DNA of 64,000 nt from an uncultured Candidatus Saccharibacteria bacterium (GTDB taxonomy: Bacteria; Patescibacteriota; Minisyncoccia; Phycocordibacterales; UBA12088). Under the pieces are notes generated by a model, which saw only the letters and a list, made by a program, of their open reading frames with translations, searched no databases and had not been told where the DNA came from. The position numbers and the translations under genes were made by a program. Shown here piece after piece: positions 46,959 through 59,666 of the stretch. The stretch is taken from positions 138,813-202,812 of the forward strand of contig CAZMLK010000002.1 of the NCBI GenBank assembly GCA_964567265.1. Direction: 5' to 3'. Each line of letters begins with the position of its first letter. Positions within the stretch are counted from its first letter, which is position 1.

Positions 46959-47339
46959 ATGGCAACGAAAGAAACTACAGAAGCTCCGAAGCGCGCCAAG
47001 CGCGCGGCGAAAGCTGTCAAAGGAGTTGAAGCCGTCTCCAAGCTCCGCATTCGCGTGCGCGCCTATGAGCACAAGCTCCTCGACGCATCCGTAAAGCAGA
47101 TCATGGACACCGCGCTTCGCTTCGATGCCACCATCGTCGGTCCGATCCCGCTTCCGACGGAAATCAAGAAGTACACGGTGAACCGCGCCGCATTCGTCTA
47201 CAAAGACGCGCGAGAACAATTTGAAATGCGAGTGCACAAGCGCCTCATCGACATCCTGAATCCGTCCGCGAAAGTCATCGAGTCCCTGACCAACCTCACC
47301 CTCCCATCCGGCGTCAACATCGACGTCAAGATGGTTTAG
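46959..47339 (+). CDS. rpsJ: 30S ribosomal protein S10 with Lys/Ala-rich N-terminal extension
   Basis: 126 aa; core KLRIRVRAYEHKLLD...GPIPLPT; about 25 extra N-terminal residues. Confidence 0.95.
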   Translation: MATKETTEAPKRAKRAAKAVKGVEAVSKLRIRVRAYEHKLLDASVKQIMDTALRFDATIVGPIPLPTEIKKYTVNRAAFVYKDAREQFEMRVHKRLIDILNPSAKVIESLTNLTLPSGVNIDVKMV

Positions 47340-47384
47340 GTAAAAGGAGTCAAACAAAAAATCCCCTCACGGGGATTTTTTGTT
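47319..47384 (+). repeat. rpsJ 3' end plus terminator, repeat copy 1 (native)
   Basis: ATCGACGTCAAGATGGTTTAGGTAAAAGGAGTCAAACAAAAAATCCCC-TCAC-GGGGATTTTTTGTT. Confidence 0.85.
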
Positions 47385-47426
47385 ACACTATGGAGGATTT
47401 CTTTTACATACTAACCGTTCAATCTC

Positions 47427-48131
47427 ATGTCAGAAGGATTCCACGAGGCGAGTGCAGAAAAATCACCCAAGGAGGCATTTACAGAAAAATTCCTTGATCA
47501 GCCTTACGGGAACCTGACAGAAGAACAGCAGGCGATGCTTCGTACGCATGTTGAGGGGCGGGAGGGTCCATGGACAACGGTGCCGAACATATTCGATGTA
47601 ACTTGGGATGATGAAGCGAAACGGATTGTCATCGAGCTGTCTGAGGGAGGAAGCCAAACGTTTATATACGACCCCTTCGTGCCGAAGGTGCCACAAGCTG
47701 CACCACCTGTAGAATCAAGAGGAGACTCCGAGCCGAGTGGCGCAGTAAAAGTCGGGGAAGAACCCGTCTCAGTTGTGACTCAGAGCAACGAGGCGTTGCG
47801 CACCGTGATCCCTGGCGGGGAATGGATCGATTTGTCTGGGAAAAAGATCGTAACCGATCAGGCTGGCTTGTATTCAGGCAAAGAACTGGTCATGAAAACG
47901 GGTGCCGCGAACACGATGAATTTTGTCGGCAAATATAATTTCCACGAGGGAACGATGATCGTTGGAGGGCCCGATGGCTCACTGCACGCGGCTCCGTACT
48001 CGGCAGAGAGAGAGGAGGCGCTCAAAAGCGCAGGGTACAAGCAAGAGTTCGAGCTGGTGCCGAGTTTAACAGGTCATCAAAGGTTCGAAGACGAGGAGAC
48101 CCAGAGGGTATTTGAAGCGCTAAAAAACTAG
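47427..48131 (+). CDS. Hypothetical protein (cassette 1 of rpsJ-rplC island)
   Basis: 234 aa, acidic, no TM, no motif; flanked by repeat copies 1 and 2. Confidence 0.45.
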   Translation: MSEGFHEASAEKSPKEAFTEKFLDQPYGNLTEEQQAMLRTHVEGREGPWTTVPNIFDVTWDDEAKRIVIELSEGGSQTFIYDPFVPKVPQAAPPVESRGDSEPSGAVKVGEEPVSVVTQSNEALRTVIPGGEWIDLSGKKIVTDQAGLYSGKELVMKTGAANTMNFVGKYNFHEGTMIVGGPDGSLHAAPYSAEREEALKSAGYKQEFELVPSLTGHQRFEDEETQRVFEALKN

Positions 48132-48191
48132 CTTCACTCTTCCTAGAAGTCAGGCGCTTCACGTGCGGGTGTTCTGTGTCACGGTACCGGA

Positions 48192-48272
48192 ATCGACGTC
48201 AAGATGGTCTAGGCGAAGGAGTCAAACAAAGAATCCCCCCAAGATAATTTCTCTAGGGGATTTTTTGTTTTT
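48192..48272 (+). repeat. rpsJ 3' end plus terminator, repeat copy 2
   Basis: ATCGACGTCAAGATGGTCTAGGCGAAGGAGTCAAACAAAGAATCCCC...GGGGATTTTTTGTTTTTT; by eye 4 substitutions and one 1-nt indel over 48 nt versus copy 1. Confidence 0.85.
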
Positions 48273-48401
48273 TAAGAAAATAGAGATTCCGCAGAAAGGG
48301 AGGATCGGATCAAATAGAGACATTGACAAATCTATTATATGTGGTATATAATACCGCCAGATAAAGTCCTTCAATCATCGCGCTTCGGACGGAGAAAACC
48401 C

Positions 48402-48866
48402 ATGCGCCTTTCCTTGATTCTGGCCTTCGTACTCGGTCTCCAGAGCGGTTTTGTCGGCAATTCTGCTCACGCAGAGATTGCGACACCCGCCGATCTGCCC
48501 GCAGACTATGCTACCTGGCAAACGTTGCATGAACTCTCTTGTGAACCGCTGTCGATCAAAGTGTATTCGACAATCACGCCGGATGCCGAGATGGAGCTTC
48601 TGACCTACACCCTCGGCAAGAATCTGGTCGCGTACTCGATGTCATCATCCACAAATGCTGGCAAGGTAATCACCGACCATGGCCTCTACAAAGGGGAATG
48701 GAAATCGGTCGATGGCACCGATGCCAATAAGGAGAAATCGGAGCGTCTCGTGAATGCCGCCCTTCTCGATAACGGTGGACAGCCTGCTCTCGTTGCGTTC
48801 GGCCAGTGTAAGCAGGAGCTTGTGCGTAAAATCATAAAGGCTTTCTTTGCACCACTTGGCAGGTAA
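48402..48866 (+). CDS. Hypothetical secreted protein (cassette 2)
   Basis: Start at MRLSLILAFVLGLQSGFVGNSAHA (signal peptide, AHA-E cleavage site likely); own terminator CCCCCAGTCCA-CGC-ATGGACTGGGGG plus T-run. Confidence 0.5.
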   Translation: MRLSLILAFVLGLQSGFVGNSAHAEIATPADLPADYATWQTLHELSCEPLSIKVYSTITPDAEMELLTYTLGKNLVAYSMSSSTNAGKVITDHGLYKGEWKSVDGTDANKEKSERLVNAALLDNGGQPALVAFGQCKQELVRKIIKAFFAPLGR

Positions 48867-48951
48867 AACGGAGCCCATTGCATCAGTGTGTGTTCCTCGC
48901 CGTTGATACCCGCCCCCAGTCCACGCATGGACTGGGGGCTTCATTTTTTTG

Positions 48952-48969
48952 CCTCATGGGGATTTTTTG
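48952..48969 (+). repeat. Partial third copy of the rpsJ terminator right half
   Basis: CCTCATGGGGATTTTTTG versus CCTCACGGGGATTTTTTG at 47365-47382 (17 of 18). Confidence 0.6.
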
Positions 48970-49155
48970 ATTTTTGTTGAAAATAGAAAAAGCCGAAATG
49001 CGCTGTTTCGGCTTTCTTCCTCGTGCATGAGGGTCACGGGTTCGGTGGTTAGTATAGTCTGCCACGAACAGGCATTGGTACAGCTTCTCATTGGACGTAG
49101 CGTTGCTAAAGCAAAAGAAAATCGCTGCGGGCCCGATGGTCCGCAGCGACATCCG

Positions 49156-49767
49156 TCATGCGCTCTGAGGGAATGAGGGCGTCAGAGTGGTGCGACGTCC
49201 CCAGAGATACATACAGAGGAGGATAAGTCCCGAAACGACGAGCAGGATCCCGCCAATTGCAGGGATGAGCCATGCTTGGCGCGTTCCGTCCGAATAGAAA
49301 TCGAACGTGAGATTTTCTCGGTCAACGCGCACTTTCCCCACGTAGGTGAAAAAAGTGTAGTCAGGAAGTGGCACTGCCGCGCTGATGTAGGTCGATAGGC
49401 CGTTCTCCAGCCTGACCAATGCGGTATATTCGACCACCCCATGGAGACCTTTGCCGTCCATGCTCCCGTCGTCCCGCCACCCATTCTGGATTACCACGAA
49501 TGTTGGAACGCTATTCCCCGTTCGTTGCTGAAAATCCTGCATTGGCAATTCTGCCGAAGGCGTACCGTTCTCGAAGGAAAGCACGCTGAGGGTCGTTGAA
49601 TTGTTCGGCTTCCACAACTCGACGTGTATCGGATCAGGCATAGGACTTGCAGTCCATCCAATCAGCATCCATGCACCGAGGGCAAAAATGCCCAGAGGCC
49701 ATCGATAGGTTTTCCACGCACATTTCAGTATCTTTCGAAACGGCTTTCTCTTCGAATTACCAGTCAT
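49156..49767 (-). CDS. Hypothetical membrane protein with N- and C-terminal TM helices (cassette 3)
   Basis: ORF 49156-49803; start tentatively at MTGNSKRK; TM1 WPLGIFALGAWMLIGW, TM2 LIPAIGGILLVVSGLILLCMYLW. Confidence 0.45.
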   Translation of the reverse strand: MTGNSKRKPFRKILKCAWKTYRWPLGIFALGAWMLIGWTASPMPDPIHVELWKPNNSTTLSVLSFENGTPSAELPMQDFQQRTGNSVPTFVVIQNGWRDDGSMDGKGLHGVVEYTALVRLENGLSTYISAAVPLPDYTFFTYVGKVRVDRENLTFDFYSDGTRQAWLIPAIGGILLVVSGLILLCMYLWGRRTTLTPSFPQSA

Positions 49768-49915
49768 CTTCCATGCTCCATGGATAGAGTGAACCCACGC
49801 CACCGTACCATCCGATCTTCAAAATGTAAATAAATATCTTCGCCCTCTGTGCGTAGACCGAGGGCTCCGTCGTTCCATGGTTCCTGAAAGCCGTTTGGTG
49901 CTATGCTACGGAGTC

Positions 49916-50377
49916 ATGAAGCAGAAGCTGAAAGCGCTATTCAAGTTCGCCTCCCCGGCCATCCTGCTGGTATTCCGGACGTACTACTTCATCTTCCGCC
50001 CGAAGGGGGAGAGCGTGAAGTGCGTGATCCGGAACGGTGGCAACATCCTCCTCATCCGCAATTCGTACGGCGCGAAGTTCTGGACGCTTCCCGGTGGCGG
50101 CGTGAAGTCGAGCGAGACCCTGGAACAGGCGGCCGTCCGCGAAGCACATGAGGAAGTCGGCATCGAGATCCGCGAGCAGGACCTCACCAAGCACGGCAAG
50201 GTGCGCTACCTCCTCGACTTCCGCCGCTCCACGGTCTGGGTGTTCAGCGTCACGGTGCCGTCTCCCGCATTCCACCTTCATGGCGTCGAGATCGAGGAAG
50301 CGAAGTGGTTTCCCGAGAACGCAATCCCCGGCATGCGCTCGCATCTCCTGGAACGTTTCCTCGATTTGGCGAAATAA
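49916..50377 (+). CDS. NUDIX hydrolase (cassette 4)
   Basis: Start at MKQKLKAL (TGcTATGCT ends 8 nt upstream); Nudix box GGGVKSSETLEQAAVREAHEEVGI. Confidence 0.8.
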   Translation: MKQKLKALFKFASPAILLVFRTYYFIFRPKGESVKCVIRNGGNILLIRNSYGAKFWTLPGGGVKSSETLEQAAVREAHEEVGIEIREQDLTKHGKVRYLLDFRRSTVWVFSVTVPSPAFHLHGVEIEEAKWFPENAIPGMRSHLLERFLDLAK

Positions 50378-50433
50378 CCGACCGATTTTAGAGTCGGTAT
50401 TGACTATGAAATTAAATTCGTCATGCTGGCACA

Positions 50434-51069
50434 ATGACTAGGTCCACAGAGGAATCACTTGAAATCATCTCAAACCAATTTGTCGTGAAGCGTCGGTTTA
50501 CCACGGGTACATTCAACCTTATATTGGGTGCGGTACTAGGCGCCACTTTGACTTTTTTAGTAGGAGCTATTAATTCTTACATCTCCAACCAAACCTTACG
50601 TCAAGCGGTTGCAAAGAGCATCTACATTGAAATTGAGCATAATAAAATTTTTTTAAATAGCTCTGTATCTGATTTAAACAGCGCAGTTTTAGATTGGAAA
50701 GGCAACAAAGGAAATAAATTAAATATGCAAGTATTCGCCCTGCATAGAGAAGACTTCTACCAAATTTATCTCCAAGATTTAACTCTATTAGATAAAAACA
50801 CTCTAGATGAAACCTACGAATTTTACGGAAGACTTAGGACCATTGATTACCTAACAAAATTAATCACTGATGATTTTGATCTCTATTACAGAAATGAAAA
50901 TCTAATTTCTAGAGCTGATATCTTGTCCCGACTAATGGAATTACAGCAGGATGTGGATGAGGCGCTTCGGAATGCTGACAAAATCCAAAGAGATTTAATT
51001 ACTAAATATGATGTTAACAGTGTTCAGAGTTCCTGTAATCCAACCAATTGTCTAACAAACTCTTGGTAA
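50434..51069 (+). CDS. Hypothetical single-TM protein, strongly AT-rich gene (cassette 5)
   Basis: 211 aa; TM FNLILGAVLGATLTFLVGAI then Asn/Leu/Asp-rich helical region; composition clearly unlike flanking genes. Confidence 0.45.
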   Translation: MTRSTEESLEIISNQFVVKRRFTTGTFNLILGAVLGATLTFLVGAINSYISNQTLRQAVAKSIYIEIEHNKIFLNSSVSDLNSAVLDWKGNKGNKLNMQVFALHREDFYQIYLQDLTLLDKNTLDETYEFYGRLRTIDYLTKLITDDFDLYYRNENLISRADILSRLMELQQDVDEALRNADKIQRDLITKYDVNSVQSSCNPTNCLTNSW

Positions 51070-51075
51070 AGAGAG

Positions 51076-51104
51076 TTGCATCCTTTCAGACCTTCCTGTA
51101 TAGT
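51076..51104 (+). promoter_or_regulatory. Candidate rplC operon promoter
   Basis: TTGCAT, 17-nt spacer, TATAGT. Confidence 0.45.
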
Positions 51105-51110
51105 CCATTT

Positions 51111-51249
51111 ACTCTCGTTCTGAGAGATTCTATGTCCCAATAGGGACCAATGGACTGAAATCCGCAAGGGATTCGTCCTTGGCGGTATTTTTAATACCAA
51201 AAACGATCAAAAGACGGTAGAAATCTTCAAAAAACCTATAAAACTCAAC
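51111..51249 (+). promoter_or_regulatory. Structured 5' leader of rplC-rplD-rplW-rplB (possible r-protein autoregulatory leader)
   Basis: Four consecutive hairpins: CTCTC/GAGAG, GTCCC-AATA-GGGAC, AATCC-GCAA(G)-GGATT, GGTATT-TTTA-ATACC. Confidence 0.3.
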
Positions 51250-51861
51250 GTGAAATTCATCCTCGGCACAAAAGAAGAAATGACGCAGGTCTTCGATGAG
51301 AAGGGCGTCGTCCACGCAGGAACCATCCTCAATGCAGGTCCTTTGACCGTCACCAAGGTCCTCACCAAGGACTCTGACGGATATGAGGCAGTCCAGGTCG
51401 GATACGGCGTCCGCAAGGAAAAGCATGCATCGAAGCCAGTCATGGGCCAGACCAAGGCGTTCGGTATCTTCCGGACCCTCAAGGAGTTCCGCGATGTCGA
51501 GGGCATGACCGCAGGCGACAAGATCGATGTCTCGGTCTTTGCCCCAGGCGACACCATCCAGGTCTCAGCGATCTCGAAGGGTAAGGGCTTCCAGGGCGTC
51601 GTGAAGCGTCATGGTTTCCATGGCGGTCCGCGTTCGCACGGCCAGAAGCACTCCGAGCGCTCCCCGGGTTCTATCGGCGGCGGCGCGCGTGCCGGAGGCC
51701 GTGTCGCGAAGGGCATGAAAATGGGTGGCCGCATGGGTACTGACCGCGTCACGGTCAAGAATCTCAAGGTGCTCGTTGTCGATGCTGCCGCGAACACCAT
51801 CATCGTGTCAGGAGCCGTTCCGGGTCGTCGCGGAACGCTCGTTGAAGTAGTTTCAAAATAA
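51250..51861 (+). CDS. rplC: 50S ribosomal protein L3
   Basis: 203 aa; GTG start; KGKGFQGVVKRHGFHGGPRSHG. Confidence 0.96.
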   Translation: MKFILGTKEEMTQVFDEKGVVHAGTILNAGPLTVTKVLTKDSDGYEAVQVGYGVRKEKHASKPVMGQTKAFGIFRTLKEFRDVEGMTAGDKIDVSVFAPGDTIQVSAISKGKGFQGVVKRHGFHGGPRSHGQKHSERSPGSIGGGARAGGRVAKGMKMGGRMGTDRVTVKNLKVLVVDAAANTIIVSGAVPGRRGTLVEVVSK

Positions 51862-51865
51862 AATC

Positions 51866-52642
51866 ATGGAAGCGACAATTTACAGCATGGACGGAAAGAA
51901 GACGGGCGCTCTCACGCTCCCGGAGAGCCTCTTCGCGCTTCCGTGGAACGCAGACCTCGTGCACCAGGTGACCGTCTCTGAGGCGGCAAACCTCCGCACG
52001 CCGGTTGCAGACACCAAGGGACGCGGCGAAGTACGCGGCGGCGGCAAGAAGCCGTGGCAGCAGAAGGGTACGGGCCGCGCACGCGCAGGTTCCCGTCGTT
52101 CACCAATCTGGAAGGGAGGTGGTGTTTCTCATGGTCCAAAGGCTGAGAAGGTCTTCGCACAGAAGATCAACAAGAAGATGAAGTCGAAGGCGCTCTTCAC
52201 CGTCCTCTCGAAGAAGTTCAAGGATGGCGAGGTTCTCTTCGTCGACCAGCTTTCATTCTCAGCACCAAAGGCGAAGCTCGCCAAGGAGACGCTGTTTGCA
52301 CTCGCAAAGGTCTCTGGTTTCGAGAAGCTCGCAACCAAGCGGAAGAATGCAGCACTCATCGGCCTCGGTACGCATGATTTGAATGCAAAGAAGAGCTTCC
52401 GCAACTTCGGCAATGTCGAACTCGGCGAGATCCGCAACTGGACCGCGTCTGACCTCCTCAAGTACAAGTTCCTCATCGTCGGGACTCCGGACGCGTCGAT
52501 CGCGCTCCTCCAGTCACGTGCAGAGGGTGGTGCCGCACCGGCAGCAGCTGTGGTTGCACCGAAGAAGTACGCTCCGAAGAAGGTTGCGGCAAAGAAGCCG
52601 GCAGCCAAGAAAGCGGTAAAGCCTGCAAAGGCCGCAAAATAA
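51866..52642 (+). CDS. rplD: 50S ribosomal protein L4 with Ala/Lys/Pro-rich C-terminal tail
   Basis: 258 aa; GGGKKPWQQKGTGRARAGS; tail AAPAAAVVAPKKYAPKKVAAKKPAAKKAVKPAKAAK. Confidence 0.96.
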   Translation: MEATIYSMDGKKTGALTLPESLFALPWNADLVHQVTVSEAANLRTPVADTKGRGEVRGGGKKPWQQKGTGRARAGSRRSPIWKGGGVSHGPKAEKVFAQKINKKMKSKALFTVLSKKFKDGEVLFVDQLSFSAPKAKLAKETLFALAKVSGFEKLATKRKNAALIGLGTHDLNAKKSFRNFGNVELGEIRNWTASDLLKYKFLIVGTPDASIALLQSRAEGGAAPAAAVVAPKKYAPKKVAAKKPAAKKAVKPAKAAK

Positions 52643-52646
52643 ACAT

Positions 52647-52994
52647 ATGGCACTCTTCAGCAAGAAAAAGGAATCAGGAGCAGCACCGAAAACGACAACC
52701 GGCACCATTCGTGATATCGGCAGCGCGATCATCCGCCCGCACATCACGGAGAAGGCGGCTATCCAGACCGGCAACGATGTCTATGTCTTCGAGGTGACCT
52801 CGAAGGCGACCAAGATGGAGATCGCGAAGGCAATCGTCGCCCTCTACAAGGTCGTTCCGGTGAAGGTCAACATCGTCACCAAGTCGCCACGCCGCGTCGC
52901 ATCACGCACGCGCCGCGGGATCATGGGCACAAAGACGGGCATGAAGAAGGCCTACGTCTACCTGAAGAAGGGCGACAAGATCGAATTTGTATAA
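52647..52994 (+). CDS. rplW: 50S ribosomal protein L23
   Basis: 115 aa; IIRPHITEKA...VFEV...ATKMEIAKAI..LYKV.PVKVN. Confidence 0.93.
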   Translation: MALFSKKKESGAAPKTTTGTIRDIGSAIIRPHITEKAAIQTGNDVYVFEVTSKATKMEIAKAIVALYKVVPVKVNIVTKSPRRVASRTRRGIMGTKTGMKKAYVYLKKGDKIEFV

Positions 52995-52998
52995 ACAT

Positions 52999-53841
52999 AT
53001 GAAGACCTACAAGCCAACAACACCGTCGCGCCGCCACATCTCGAATCCGAACTACAAGGAGCTTTTGTCTGCGACGACTCCGCACAAGGCGCTCACGAAG
53101 GGACGGAAGCGGAACATGGGCCGCAACAAGGACGGACGCATCACCACCCGCCACAAGGGAGGAGGCAGCAAGCGCCGTTTCCGCGATGTGGATTTCCTCT
53201 ACTCCAAGAAGGACATCGTCGCGAAGATCGAGAGCATCGAATACGATCCGAACCGTACTGGCTTCATCGCGCTCGCGCTCTATGCTGACGGAACCCGCTC
53301 GTACGTCCTCGCACCGAAGTCTCTCAAGGCCGGCTCAACCTTCCTCGTTTCAGAGAAGGCCAAGATCCAGCCGGGGAACCGCCTCCCGCTCGCGAATATC
53401 CCGGTTGGTACCTTTGTGTACAACCTCGAGATCAAGCCGGGAAATGGCTCGAAGATGGTCCGCTCAGCAGGAAACTACGCTGAGGTCATTGCGCAGGACG
53501 GCATTTATGCCCTCGTGAAGATGCCATCGACCGAAGTTCGCAAGTTCCTCGGAAGCGCATGGGCATCGGTTGGTGAGGTCTCAAACGATGAGCACCACCT
53601 CGCGAATGTCGGAAAGGCAGGACGCTCACGCAACAAGGGTATCCGCCCAACGGTTCGCGGTACTGCCATGAACCCAGTCGACCACCCACACGGAGGCGGC
53701 GAAGGAAAGTCTGGACGCGGTCACCGCCGCGCACGCTCTCTCTGGGGCAAGCCGACCGGCAAGGGTCACAAGACTCGCACGCCGAAGAAGTACTCGAACC
53801 ACCTCGTCGTTTCTCGCCGCAAGGTTGGAAAGAAGAAATAA
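52999..53841 (+). CDS. rplB: 50S ribosomal protein L2
   Basis: Start at MKTYKPTTPSRR; RGTAMNPVDHPHGGGEGK. Confidence 0.96.
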   Translation: MKTYKPTTPSRRHISNPNYKELLSATTPHKALTKGRKRNMGRNKDGRITTRHKGGGSKRRFRDVDFLYSKKDIVAKIESIEYDPNRTGFIALALYADGTRSYVLAPKSLKAGSTFLVSEKAKIQPGNRLPLANIPVGTFVYNLEIKPGNGSKMVRSAGNYAEVIAQDGIYALVKMPSTEVRKFLGSAWASVGEVSNDEHHLANVGKAGRSRNKGIRPTVRGTAMNPVDHPHGGGEGKSGRGHRRARSLWGKPTGKGHKTRTPKKYSNHLVVSRRKVGKKK

Positions 53842-53859
53842 GATCAAGACACGGGAAGA

Positions 53860-53898
53860 AACAAAAGGGCCGCGCGAACGCGCGGCCCTTTTGTTTTT
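53860..53898 (+). terminator. Intrinsic terminator after rplB
   Basis: AAAAGGGCCGCGCG-AA-CGCGCGGCCCTTTT plus GTTTTT. Confidence 0.75.
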
Positions 53899-53913
53899 GA
53901 TTGGAAATGATCA

Positions 53914-53957
53914 TAAAAAGATGAAGCCGCCGGCGTGCGTACGTGCGCCGGCGGCTC
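53914..53957 (-). terminator. Intrinsic terminator of the minus-strand cassette
   Basis: GCCGCCGGCG...CGCCGGCGGC hairpin, followed on minus strand by TTCATCTTTTTA. Confidence 0.65.
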
Positions 53958-53980
53958 TTCAATTACACCCGGAAGGGGAG

Positions 53981-54262
53981 CTATCTTTTGCCGTTCTCGG
54001 CCGATAGCAGAAACGCCGTCTTGTCGTTGCGGACGGGACGCGCAGTCATCCTGTTGCCTGTAAGGGCTGCTAGGAGACGCGCAATCTGCTGGAGCTGGCC
54101 TTCGTCGGCGATCGTCACATCAGAACGCATTCCATCCACCAAAAGGTAGATTTGATTATTGCCCCTCATGATGAGCAGGGTGCCGCCGGGAGCCGAGACA
54201 ACGTCCCCCTCTTGGGGTGCTGTGGATCCGAGCTCACCATTGCATCTCAGTTCACATGCCAC
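53981..54262 (-). CDS. Hypothetical protein inserted between rplB and rpsS (gene B)
   Basis: ORF 53981-54289 begins at TTG; start tentatively at GTG 54262, 8 nt after AGGAAGG; no motif. Confidence 0.4.
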   Translation of the reverse strand: MACELRCNGELGSTAPQEGDVVSAPGGTLLIMRGNNQIYLLVDGMRSDVTIADEGQLQQIARLLAALTGNRMTARPVRNDKTAFLLSAENGKR

Positions 54263-54343
54263 AATTAGTACCTTCCTGCAGTTTTCCAAGTGACATTAAG
54301 AAGCAATCTGACGATTTGTCAAATTTCTTCTTTAGGGAAGCCC

Positions 54344-54381
54344 TAAAAAGATACGCCCCCGAGCTGCTCTGCAGCTCGGGG
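54344..54381 (-). terminator. Intrinsic terminator between the two cassette genes
   Basis: CCCCGAGCTGC-AGA-GCAGCTCGGGG followed on minus strand by GCGTATCTTTTT; a TTGACA box follows. Confidence 0.6.
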
Positions 54382-54390
54382 TACGTGTGT

Positions 54391-54765
54391 TCAGTAGGGG
54401 AGGGTCATTTCTCCCTGACGCGGCATCTGTGGTTCAAGAGGGACGGAGGACTTGAGCTCCTTCAGCTTGCAAACAAGCCTGAACGCCCTACCTATTTCCT
54501 GCGCCATGCGGTACTTCTGCTTGCCCTTCAGCAATATCGGCGTTTCCAAATAGAAGCTTGCTTCTGCCCTGGACCAGAAACAACGTCGTACCCGTTTCCG
54601 GCCAAGTATCCTGATGGCAACCGCAATTGCCACGGCTTCGAAGTAAGGACGCTCGACAACATAAAGCCCTTTGCACCGGATGAGGAGAAACTCGCAATTG
54701 GTCGTGGCATCTCGGCACCCAAAGTCGCGAACGCTCACGCGCTTGGGGGAAAACGCCTTGGTCAT
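54391..54765 (-). CDS. Hypothetical basic protein inserted between rplB and rpsS (gene A)
   Basis: 124 aa, Arg/Lys/Cys-rich, no motif securely recognised. Confidence 0.45.
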   Translation of the reverse strand: MTKAFSPKRVSVRDFGCRDATTNCEFLLIRCKGLYVVERPYFEAVAIAVAIRILGRKRVRRCFWSRAEASFYLETPILLKGKQKYRMAQEIGRAFRLVCKLKELKSSVPLEPQMPRQGEMTLPY

Positions 54766-54861
54766 CCACTTTCCTCCAGAAAAGGCGGTAAAGAACAGCC
54801 GATATTAAAAACTCTATACGCCAATCTGTCAAGGGTAAGGAAAGAGGAAAGCGCCTTTTGT

Positions 54862-54890
54862 TTGACAGAAACCCCCGTTTTGCGTACTAT
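54862..54890 (+). promoter_or_regulatory. Candidate promoter restarting the S10-operon remainder at rpsS
   Basis: CCTTTTGTTTGACA context; TTGACA, 17-nt spacer, TACTAT; 39 nt before rpsS ATG. Confidence 0.5.
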
Positions 54891-54929
54891 GCTTCCCAAG
54901 CTCTCTCGCGAGCTATTTTCTTTACAGAA

Positions 54930-55280
54930 ATGACACGATCACTCAAAAAAGGCCCATACGTCGACGAAAAGCTCCTCAAGAAGATCGAGGGGAAGAAGGC
55001 TGGCACCACCGGCCCGATTAAGACGTGGGCACGCCGCTCGCAGATCGCCCCAGAGATGGTCGGCTTCACGTTTGGCGTTCACAATGGCAAAGACCATGTC
55101 CCGGTCCTTGTGAGCGAAGAAATGGTCGGCCATCGCCTTGGAGAGTTCTCTCCGACAACCAAGTTCGTCCGCCACGGCGGTAAGATGCAGAAGGAGCTTG
55201 AATCCAAGCGCAAGGAGGCAGAAGTCGCAGCAGCAAAGGCCGCAAAGGCTCCCGCAGCCGCGCCTGCTAAGAAGAAATAA
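54930..55280 (+). CDS. rpsS: 30S ribosomal protein S19 with Ala/Lys-rich C-terminal tail
   Basis: Start at [11 protein letters not shown]; [10 protein letters not shown]; tail [22 protein letters not shown]. Confidence 0.95.
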
Positions 55281-55285
55281 GGCAT

Positions 55286-55720
55286 ATGAAGGCTTCCCTC
55301 AACAACTACCGCCAGGCACCTCGCAAGGTCCGCCTCATCACCGATTCCGTCAAAGGGAAGCGCGTTGAGGTCGCACTTGTCGAACTGACCCATGCCCAGA
55401 AGAAGGGAGCCGACCAGATCAAGAAGCTCGTCGCCTCAGCCGTCGCGAACGCGAAGGTCCAGGACAGTGGCCTCAATGTCGCCGAGCTCGTCATCAAGAA
55501 CATCACCGTCGACCAGGGCGTCACTCTCCGCCGCTTCCGTCCGCGCGCCCGCGGACGCGCAGCGCCGATCAATCACGAATCCAGCCATGTCCGCGTGGTC
55601 CTGATGAAGGCAGCGGTCAAGGAAAAGGTCCGTGAGGTCTCTGGAAAGGAGGAGGCAGCAGCGCCAAAGGCAGCCAAGAAATCTGCCAAGATGGCTCCAA
55701 AGGCGGAGACCACCGAGTAA
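55286..55720 (+). CDS. rplV: 50S ribosomal protein L22 with C-terminal extension
   Basis: 144 aa; RQAPRKVRLITDSVKGK, RFRPRARGRA. Confidence 0.95.
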   Translation: MKASLNNYRQAPRKVRLITDSVKGKRVEVALVELTHAQKKGADQIKKLVASAVANAKVQDSGLNVAELVIKNITVDQGVTLRRFRPRARGRAAPINHESSHVRVVLMKAAVKEKVREVSGKEEAAAPKAAKKSAKMAPKAETTE

Positions 55721-58660: not shown

Positions 58661-58679
58661 ACCCAGAAATTTTAAAGAA

Positions 58680-58720
58680 ACAAAAGGCCCCCGGCGCTTC
58701 GCGCCGGGGGCCTTTTGTTT
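58680..58720 (+). terminator. Intrinsic terminator after rplE
   Basis: ACAAAAGGCCCCCGGCGC-TTC-GCGCCGGGGGCCTTTTGT plus TT, fused to a TTGACA box. Confidence 0.75.
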
Positions 58721-58747
58721 GACAAGCCGCCAAATCATCAGTACCAT
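58719..58747 (+). promoter_or_regulatory. Candidate promoter of small basic ORF
   Basis: TTGACA, 17-nt spacer, TACCAT. Confidence 0.4.
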
Positions 58748-59533: not shown

Positions 59534-59570
59534 GCCGCCGGCCAGGTTTCCTGGCCGGCGGCTCTCTTTT
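59534..59570 (+). terminator. Intrinsic terminator
   Basis: GCCGCCGGCCAGG-TTTC-CTGGCCGGCGGC plus TCTCTTTT. Confidence 0.7.
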
Positions 59571-59580
59571 CCGCCTTTGT

Positions 59581-59609
59581 TTGACAATGTATATTCAGGC
59601 TGTTAGTAT
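59581..59609 (+). promoter_or_regulatory. Candidate promoter restarting the spc-operon remainder at rpsN
   Basis: TTGACA, 17-nt spacer, TAGTAT. Confidence 0.5.
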
Positions 59610-59666
59610 AGCCGGAAGCTCGTTTAGGGCTTTCTTTTTTAGTTAGGCCTCGAAGAAGCACGCCAC

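Follow-up and report, generated by a model that had tools for sequence, protein, structure and literature searches.

Hotspots of horizontal gene transfer that lack mobile genetic elements and lie between recombining core genes have been described before (Oliveira, Touchon, Cury & Rocha 2017, PMC5635113). In addition, insertions between the operons of the ribosomal-protein super-cluster are on record for Gammaproteobacteria and Bacilli, and the accessible text of the two reports describes rare multigene insertions and breaks of the operon-operon concatenation (PMC8046335, PMC6735719). Here, we analyzed a 64,000-nucleotide stretch of contig CAZMLK010000002.1 (positions 138,813 to 202,812 of the forward strand; assembly GCA_964567265.1), hereafter the window, in which the ribosomal-protein genes rplB (L2) and rpsS (S19) are separated by a spacer of 1,088 bp. 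The S10-spc ribosomal-protein cluster is the textbook case of a frozen gene order, and the rplB-rpsS junction in model bacteria is normally only a few nucleotides long. Our analysis indicates that the spacer is probably an accessory-gene island at an operon boundary, which acts as a clade-wide hotspot of gene turnover, and no mobile element was recognised among the junction families listed.

The spacer runs from the end of rplB at 53841 to the ATG of rpsS at 54930 (not 54932), and contains two open reading frames (ORFs), ORF A and ORF B, which are antisense to the ribosomal-protein genes (Table 1). A first-pass annotation, made from the letters alone, had reported both ORFs, a minus-strand terminator after each of them and a TTGACA box between them. 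All of these features were found where it had placed them, the terminators being T3 for ORF A and T2 for ORF B and the box lying at 54322-54317, and the coding DNA is foreign-looking. Since each ORF has its own promoter-like site, ribosome-binding site (RBS) and terminator, the island is, as far as these predicted signals go, composed of two monocistronic antisense units, and is not one bicistronic cassette. The promoter scan made no call at the ORF A site, as the scan rule demands an A at position 2 of the -10 box; this site was read from the sequence.

Every junction of the cluster was surveyed in 80 species representatives, chosen as the best RplB relatives (62-79% identical to the RplB of the window). 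The rplB-rpsS gap has a median of 715 bp and ranges from 58 to 5,668 bp, exceeding 300 bp in 51 of the 67 relatives and 1 kb in 24. At 13 further loci, no rpsS was found downstream of rplB, and 7 of these have 2.9-6 kb of downstream sequence. The rpsJ-rplC gap has a median of 337 bp and a maximum of 3,803 bp, and exceeds 1 kb in 20 of 71 cases. For the ten other junctions, the medians lie between about -15 and 69 bp, and one of approximately 600 measurements is larger than 300 bp (342 bp, the maximum, at rplW-rplB). Only the rplB-rpsS and rpsJ-rplC junctions carry extra DNA, with 0 to ~9 called ORFs on either strand, most of which have no recognisable relatives.

The 132 gap ORFs that were called have a median length of 126 aa and lie on both strands (73 plus and 54 minus, after a duplicate locus was dropped). 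Clustering them together with the three query proteins gave 107 clusters, of which 92 are singletons. The Pfam matches in the gaps are miscellaneous (diacylglycerol kinase, orotidine monophosphate decarboxylase, phosphoribosyltransferases, DUF559, HEPN/MNT, ResIII, DnaA_C-like and others), and a few gap ORFs match defence models. The junction ORFs of the 80 relatives match 45 Pfam families; no recombinase was seen among the 25 that were listed, nor in ten insert ORFs that were scanned individually. In pairs of close relatives with flanks 80-95% identical, empty junctions are found opposite occupied ones (L021/L025, L045/L061 and L005/L004), and the content is completely replaced in others (L053/L054 and L055/L075). 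In the nearest species, L003, a stand-alone protein resembling domain IV of DnaA is encoded next to rplB (Table 1).

One subclade of the relatives (L007, L008, L040, L042, L043 and L052) has a gap of 2.5-5.7 kb with a shared prokaryotic diacylglycerol kinase and a second conserved family. Because these junctions share a gene set, the rplB-rpsS boundary can also fix stable housekeeping-type genes, not only orphans.

Upstream of rpsS, a TTGAC(A/T/C)-N16-18-TAnnnT sequence is present in 48/67 relatives, and the shortest rplB-rpsS gaps still contain a consensus promoter. These promoter matches suggest that, in the clade, the junction is a boundary between transcription units and separates predicted units of a divided S10 cluster, namely rpsJ, rplC-rplD-rplW-rplB, and rpsS-rplV and the genes that follow. 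The junction length of a few nucleotides that the first-pass annotation took as normal thus applies to model bacteria and not to this clade, in which the gap is never shorter than ~58 bp and a promoter precedes rpsS in most species.

Turnover was also observed between strains. Two further alleles of ORF A were obtained from Logan assemblies, L001 (a 4.1 kb contig with the same rplB...rpsS context) and L002. The window and L001 belong to the same species, with 1 mismatch in ~2.3 kb of rplC-rplB, none in rpsS, and an rplB that is identical over 280 codons. By blastn and sequence comparison, window positions 53898-54280, which we call slot 1, correspond in L001 to an unrelated segment of 431 bp, which encodes a different ORF of 113 aa together with an RBS and a terminator for it; the left-hand breakpoint of the exchange is at 53897/53898. 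L002 also carries the 113-aa gene, and the flanking genes of these two strains are ~99.9% identical to those of the window. ORF B and the 113-aa protein were considered as homologues and rejected, as protein comparison gave no similarity. ORF A is kept at 90% amino acid identity in L001, while the ORF B slot holds the unrelated gene.

In the sister species L003 and L089, homologues of the 113-aa protein (148 and 135 aa, respectively) occupy the same slot, and these two are 66% identical with an omega of 0.15, a value of purifying selection. The presence of these homologues suggests that the 113-type gene is probably the older occupant of slot 1 and ORF B the newcomer. The inter-slot scaffold of ~90 bp, comprising the slot-1 promoter-like site and the T3 hairpin, is conserved in the window, L001, L002, L003 and L089, while the ORFs on either side differ. 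In L089, a C-G pair of the T3 stem has become T-A, a compensatory change. Nucleotide homology between L003 and L089 extends no further than the T3 hairpin, and the rpsS-proximal ORFs (ORF A, L003_128 and L089_117) have no detectable relationship. These three were examined as diverged orthologues; the local alignments are marginal (shuffle p 0.03-0.06), and the proteins are treated as unrelated.

Part of ORF A, together with its promoter, forms a divergent tract (54457-54873) with 41 differences (~10%), and the sequence on both sides is near-identical. Between the window and L001, the proportion of synonymous differences (pS) is 0.20 in ORF A, compared to 0 in rplC, rplD, rplB and rpsS. L002 is L001-like at 13 of 14 informative sites in 54457-54529 and window-like at 22 of 24 in 54541-54873, and the max-chi2 permutation test for this mosaic gave p = 5e-5. 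The three samples therefore represent three haplotypes with essentially identical flanks. In rplV (55324-55633), 11 sites differ between the window and L001 (pS 0.11), which looks like another recombination tract in the ribosomal-protein cluster of the population. The mosaics point to homologous recombination. In addition, remnants of the rplB 3' end are found inside the rplB-rpsS junctions of L055 and L061 (Table 1), and they look like footprints of recombination or integration anchored in rplB.

The reading frame of ORF A is intact in all three alleles. The ratios of nonsynonymous to synonymous substitution rates (dN/dS, Nei-Gojobori) are 0.22, 0.26 and 0.52, 19 of the 32 differences between the window and L001 are at third codon positions, and the comparison of synonymous with nonsynonymous differences gave a Fisher p of 3e-5. 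The other frames across ORF A are all broken or have a dN/dS above 0.75. These comparisons indicate that ORF A is a genuine gene under purifying selection. The first-pass annotation had left room for the plus-strand ORF 54217-54933 to be the real gene instead; this ORF was rejected, as it has an in-frame stop in L001 and a dN/dS of 3.8. It had also asked for conservation of the two antisense ORFs as coding sequence in relatives: ORF A shows such conservation (dN/dS 0.22-0.52), and no relative carries ORF B.

The support for ORF B consists of its gene-like layout, that is, a promoter-like site, an AGGAAGG RBS, the ORF itself and a terminator. A TTG at 54289 would be an alternative start, giving 102 aa. 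The codon-usage scores of ORF A (-0.01) and ORF B (-0.08) are at or below the 5th percentile (-0.04) of 100-codon chunks of true genes (mean 0.46) and above the decoy mean (-0.25), a pattern that suits genes of foreign or recent origin. Neither these two ORFs nor the plus-strand ORF had a match at E < 0.09 in Pfam, NCBIfam, PADLOC or PHROGs. In a word-indexed search of 5.8e9 proteins, ORF A found near-identical strain variants only, and ORF B found only itself. For ORF A, a full HMMER search of 1.84e9 representatives returned the 90% allele plus P0005 (helix-turn-helix repeats) and P0006 (tetratricopeptide repeats). The latter two were rejected as spurious relatives, since their E-values sum 14 and 9 repeats, respectively, none of which scores above 8.6 bits.

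No relatives of ORF A were found by tblastn against phage and plasmid collections or in scans of IMG/VR and JGI metagenomes, no relatives of ORF B were found in IMG/VR, and a 32-nt rpsS probe against the JGI metagenomes found other species only. Among PDB sequences, ORF A had no match, and ORF B had one weak similarity (E 0.022, residues 19-52) to the designed beta-propeller Pizza6. The AlphaFold2 (AF2) single-sequence models are poor, with mean predicted local distance difference test (pLDDT) values of 52 for ORF A and 49 for ORF B, and Foldseek of these poor models against the PDB gave nothing with E below 0.2. ORF B is an orphan private to the window strain and is treated as a putative gene, which may be young or marginal. 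For ORF A, a nucleic-acid-binding role is a low-confidence best guess.

The first-pass annotation had taken the two ORFs for a single cassette reminiscent of toxin-antitoxin or nuclease-immunity modules, in which a basic toxin or nuclease would be paired with a small neutralising partner. Two small adjacent ORFs on the same strand, one very basic (pI 10.1) and the other near neutral, would suit such a module, as would the strain variability typical of these systems and the defence-like or HEPN/MNT genes of a few relatives in the same junction. However, no toxin, antitoxin, nuclease or defence family was matched in Pfam, NCBIfam, PADLOC or PHROGs, and the 128 bp between the ORFs contain a strong terminator (z -4.9) and a conserved promoter-like site. 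Moreover, cognate pairs should be co-inherited, whereas an unrelated gene takes the place of ORF B next to an ORF A that is still 90% identical, and L003 and L089 have the middle-slot gene in common but not the rpsS-proximal one. The independent replacement of the partners, the separate transcription signals and the lack of family homology make this module highly improbable. It is also very unlikely, if a little less so, that ORF A encodes a small DNA-binding protein that regulates the divergent rpsS operon or itself and is placed there for regulation and not as cargo. ORF A is basic, its promoter-like site and the rpsS promoter face away from each other with ~29 bp between the -35 boxes, and residues 60-120 faintly and non-significantly resemble the XRE-type repeats of P0005. 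Yet the single-repeat matches reach at most 8.6 bits and owe their E-value to the summing of 14 repeats, no helix-turn-helix family is matched, and the sister species have unrelated proteins at this position and many relatives none, with the rpsS promoter and leader nevertheless kept. A larger, though still minor, chance is given to the view that the island is mostly non-functional, with only ORF A a gene and with ORF B, possibly along with the promoter and terminator matches, fortuitous features of DNA that is decaying or was acquired at random, at a neutral site. This view draws on the failure to find an ORF B homologue in 5.8e9 proteins and IMG/VR, its codon usage below the 5th percentile of true-gene chunks, its fold at pLDDT 49, and our estimate that an ORF of ~100 codons is only mildly improbable (~0.05-0.1) in 383 bp of DNA with 56% GC. 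Against it, ORF B has its RBS at the correct spacing and a strong terminator of its own, and the conserved promoter upstream of it also precedes the 113-aa gene in other strains. The gene found in this slot as the alternative allele is itself under purifying selection.

A further explanation starts from a repeated motif. The first-pass annotation had noticed that the sequence next to the rpsS promoter resembles the right half of the rplB terminator, and the two indeed share CCTTTTGTTT exactly, at 53887-53896 and 54854-54863, as a 10-nt direct repeat flanking the insert. In the window, CCTTTTGTTT occurs in 5 copies against 0.08 expected. An intact fused unit, a hairpin followed by CCTTTTGTTTGACA-N17-TACCAT, lies after rplE at 58678-58745 and has exactly the structure expected from a fusion of the rplB terminator with the rpsS promoter, which makes it plausible that, as had been proposed, an insertion split an original terminator-promoter unit. 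The insert could then be a discrete mobile or site-specific cassette of ~957 bp (53897-54853) that entered the fused unit with duplication of its 10-nt target, being integron-like, MITE-like (miniature inverted-repeat transposable element) or integrase-mediated with the recombinase acting in trans. The exact repeat at both ends, the intact unit of the same sequence, the over-represented motif, the hairpin at the end of each unit, and the rplB 3'-end duplications of L055/L061, which resemble att-site footprints, are all in keeping with such a cassette. On the other hand, no recombinase or transposase was found in the insert or in the families and ORFs listed above, no terminal inverted repeats bounding the insert were found, the hairpins are perfect terminator stems and not attC-like, and the slots change independently with breakpoints inside the insert. 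The motif itself may belong to promoters: CCTTT(T)GTTTGACA is also found upstream of the promoter at 59573, where it is not a hairpin tail, and CCTTTGTTTGACA precedes this unrelated promoter. On this evidence, CCTTTTGTTT may be an element upstream of promoters and not a duplicated target site, although the existing data fit both a duplication and the convergence of two functional motifs. Overall, we regard the mobile cassette as improbable.

A related box is located 3' of the rpsJ terminator. Fused terminator-promoter units, in which the CCTTTTGTTT T-tail of a perfect hairpin runs into a TTGACA -35 box, recur in the window (58678-58745, 59535-59615 and 47345-47385).

Several points weigh against a turnover hotspot at an operon boundary and are to be set beside the evidence for it. 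The survey covers the 80 best RplB relatives, with gap ORFs called mechanically, and the recombinase scan is confined to junction ORFs. The promoter and terminator calls are consensus matches only. The strain-level haplotypes are three, two of them on short Logan contigs; the recombination mechanism is deduced from their mosaics, and it leaves the first origin of new cassettes unexplained. The CCTTTTGTTT repeat could be the footprint of a site-specific or transposition-like event. ORF B, with no comparator, atypical codon usage and a low-confidence fold, could be non-functional, and the nucleic-acid-binding guess for ORF A comes from charge alone.

Under the hotspot reading, which we nevertheless consider the probable one, turnover would occur mainly by homologous or homology-facilitated recombination, with the near-invariant ribosomal-protein genes and the scaffold as anchors, and probably after DNA uptake. 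Recombination after uptake is plausible in the candidate phyla radiation (CPR), because com genes are conserved across the CPR and Saccharibacteria are naturally transformable (PMC10633639). With a terminator and a promoter at the boundary itself, insertions would have no polar effect on ribosomal-protein expression and would therefore be tolerated. The ORF A and ORF B proteins would act independently, as strain-variable accessory proteins. A bolder version, which we hold to be rather unlikely, would make the rpsJ-rplC and rplB-rpsS junctions natural "landing pads", i.e., conserved promoter/terminator scaffolds between the most conserved and most recombinogenic genes, where small orphans are inserted, expressed, swapped by transformation and recombination, and discarded. 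The locus would then be dedicated to generating diversity or serve as a nursery of genes, and frequency-dependent selection, linked to host or phage interaction in these episymbionts, may act on it.

Immediately upstream of rpsS, the 50 nt before the ATG are 96% identical in L003, as is a 76-nt block that extends into rpsS, compared with an RplB identity of only 79%. This leader, within 54883-54929, contains a short hairpin and a T-run (Table 1), and could be an attenuator or an autoregulatory ribosomal-protein leader. In Rfam, even a permissive threshold brought up nothing but sub-threshold look-alikes of terminators, and the leader had no match. A hairpin and T-run, usually ending 7-20 nt before the rpsS ATG, are seen in 32/67 relatives, with differing sequences.

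The window contains a second island in the rpsJ-rplC gap, with five genes in 3.9 kb (47340-51249). Only its NUDIX protein has a Pfam match, and the rpsJ-rplC junction of L089 also has a NUDIX gene. The codon-usage scores of these genes are similar to those of ORF A and ORF B. Downstream of rplV, the plus-strand S10 ribosomal-protein cluster continues in the window with rpsC, rplP, rpmC, rpsQ, rplN and rplX.

The RplB relatives place the organism in the Patescibacteria (CPR), which are ultra-small bacteria, and within them in the Paceibacteria/Parcubacteria type, and the closest species-level RplB match has 79% identity. Many of the closest genomes (among L003-L082) were deposited as "uncultured Candidatus Saccharibacteria" (third-party annotation metagenome-assembled genomes), and RplB groups these records with Kaiser-, Adler-, Nomura- and Paceibacteria records. 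The "Saccharibacteria" labels on these relatives are probably generic or wrong.

Table 1. Coordinates of the features discussed (window positions, unless a locus handle precedes them)
Feature	Position	Strand	Remarks
rpsJ	46959-47339	+	
rpsJ-rplC island, gene 1	47427-48131	+	
rpsJ-rplC island, gene 2	48339-48866	+	
rpsJ-rplC island, gene 3	49156-49803	-	
rpsJ-rplC island, NUDIX hydrolase	49877-50377	+	
rpsJ-rplC island, 36%-GC ORF	50434-51069	+	genomic background ~57% GC
rplC	51250-51861	+	
rplD	51866-52642	+	
rplW	52647-52994	+	
rplB (L2), left core-gene flank of the hotspot	52999-53841	+	ORF list and translation
T1, predicted rplB terminator	53859-53896	both	bidirectional; perfect 18-nt arms, A-tract and T-tract; -35.9 / -31.9 kcal/mol, z -7.9 / -7.8
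Slot-1 cassette (RBS, ORF B and T2)	53898-54280	-	swapped whole in L001 and L002
T2, predicted ORF B terminator	53925-53956	-	GC-rich hairpin then TTCATCTTTTT; -27.1 kcal/mol, z -3.0
ORF B (putative gene)	53981-54262	-	93 aa, GTG start; NCBI gene call (P0002)
ORF B RBS	54277-54271	-	AGGAAGG, 8 nt before GTG
Slot-1 promoter-like site	54294-54322	-	-35 TTGACA 54322-54317, 17 nt, -10 TTAATG 54299-54294
Inter-slot scaffold (slot-1 promoter and T3 hairpin)	54294-54385	-	~90 bp; alignment, blastn
T3, predicted ORF A terminator	54357-54381	-	11-bp perfect stem, 3-nt loop, T-run; -28.9 kcal/mol, z -4.9
ORF A	54391-54765	-	124 aa, isoelectric point (pI) 10.1, 5 Cys; intact in 3 alleles
ORF A RBS	54777-54773	-	GGAGG, 7 nt before ATG
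ORF A promoter-like site	54804-54832	-	-35 TTGACA 54832-54827, 17 nt spacer, -10 TTTAAT 54809-54804; read from sequence
CCTTTTGTTT motif, then predicted rpsS promoter	54854-54890	+	TTGACA 54862-54867, N17, TACTAT 54885-54890
rpsS leader	54899-54924	+	short hairpin (54899-54914) and T-run ending 15 nt before ATG
rpsS (S19), right core-gene flank	54930-55280	+	
rplV	55286-55720	+	
DnaA domain-IV-like protein, stand-alone, next to rplB in nearest species	L003:6901-7227	-	108 aa; Bac_DnaA_C, E 1.7e-15
rplB 3'-end duplicate	L055:7677-7714		38 nt, 95% identical to own rplB
rplB remnant	L061:5879-5905		VGKRGKKQ*, resembles rplB ends of other lineages

The S10-spc cluster is the backbone of CPR phylogenomics and binning, and two hypervariable junctions affect its use as a block of syntenic markers. 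Conversely, the junctions are a defined place in which to mine strain-specific accessory genes in organisms with small, supposedly streamlined genomes, and a clean small system for studying the entry of orphan genes into a genome and their exit from it. For the engineering of Patescibacteria, whose transformability is now established, they would also offer natural neutral insertion sites that already have a predicted promoter and terminator.

Compared with known systems, the locus resembles type II toxin-antitoxin modules in having two small adjacent genes on the same strand, one of them basic, that vary between strains, and differs from them in that ORF A and ORF B are separate predicted units without family homology that are replaced independently. 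With integron arrays it shares short ORF-plus-hairpin units exchanged at a fixed chromosomal place and, in slot 1, a cassette that has no promoter of its own and would use the conserved upstream one. Unlike such arrays, no intI or attI was seen and the junction holds ORF A and ORF B only; the stems are perfect or near-perfect, GC-rich and followed by T-runs, with no attC features and with GTTRRRY cores judged absent by eye; the rpsS-proximal cassette brings its own predicted promoter; and the mosaics look like homologous recombination. In comparison with insertions of insertion sequences (IS) or MITEs, the observations are mixed: a 10-nt direct repeat flanks the insert, no terminal inverted repeats bounding it were found, and the repeat also matches a recurrent terminator-tail and promoter-upstream motif.

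The insertions reported for the ribosomal-protein super-cluster of other bacteria likewise bring foreign or relocated genes between transcription units, as far as the accessible text of those reports goes (PMC8046335, PMC6735719). In comparison with that text, the breaks in this clade lie inside what is the S10 operon elsewhere (rpsJ-rplC and rplB-rpsS), are present in most of the 80 species, and show turnover even between strains. No prior description of ribosomal-operon insertions in Patescibacteria was found in the literature searched. The closest likeness is to the hotspots free of mobile genetic elements (PMC5635113). Here, too, the same core-gene pair flanks highly diverse accessory content, with gaps of 58 to >5,668 bp across 67 species. 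Turnover is rapid, as seen in the 107 clusters with 92 singletons and in the strain-level swap. No recognisable recombinase was found in the 25 listed of 45 Pfam families or in the ten insert ORFs, signs of homologous recombination are present at and inside the flanks in three haplotypes, and the lineage is plausibly transformable. The locus differs from those hotspots in that its flanks are adjacent S10-cluster genes, among the most conserved of bacterial gene orders, that its cargo consists mostly of tiny orphan ORFs, and that a conserved internal terminator-promoter scaffold, as predicted, splits the spot into independently exchangeable slots. What is unusual here is thus the site inside the S10 operon, the prevalence in most of 80 species, the turnover at the level of strains, and the arrangement of slots on a conserved scaffold.

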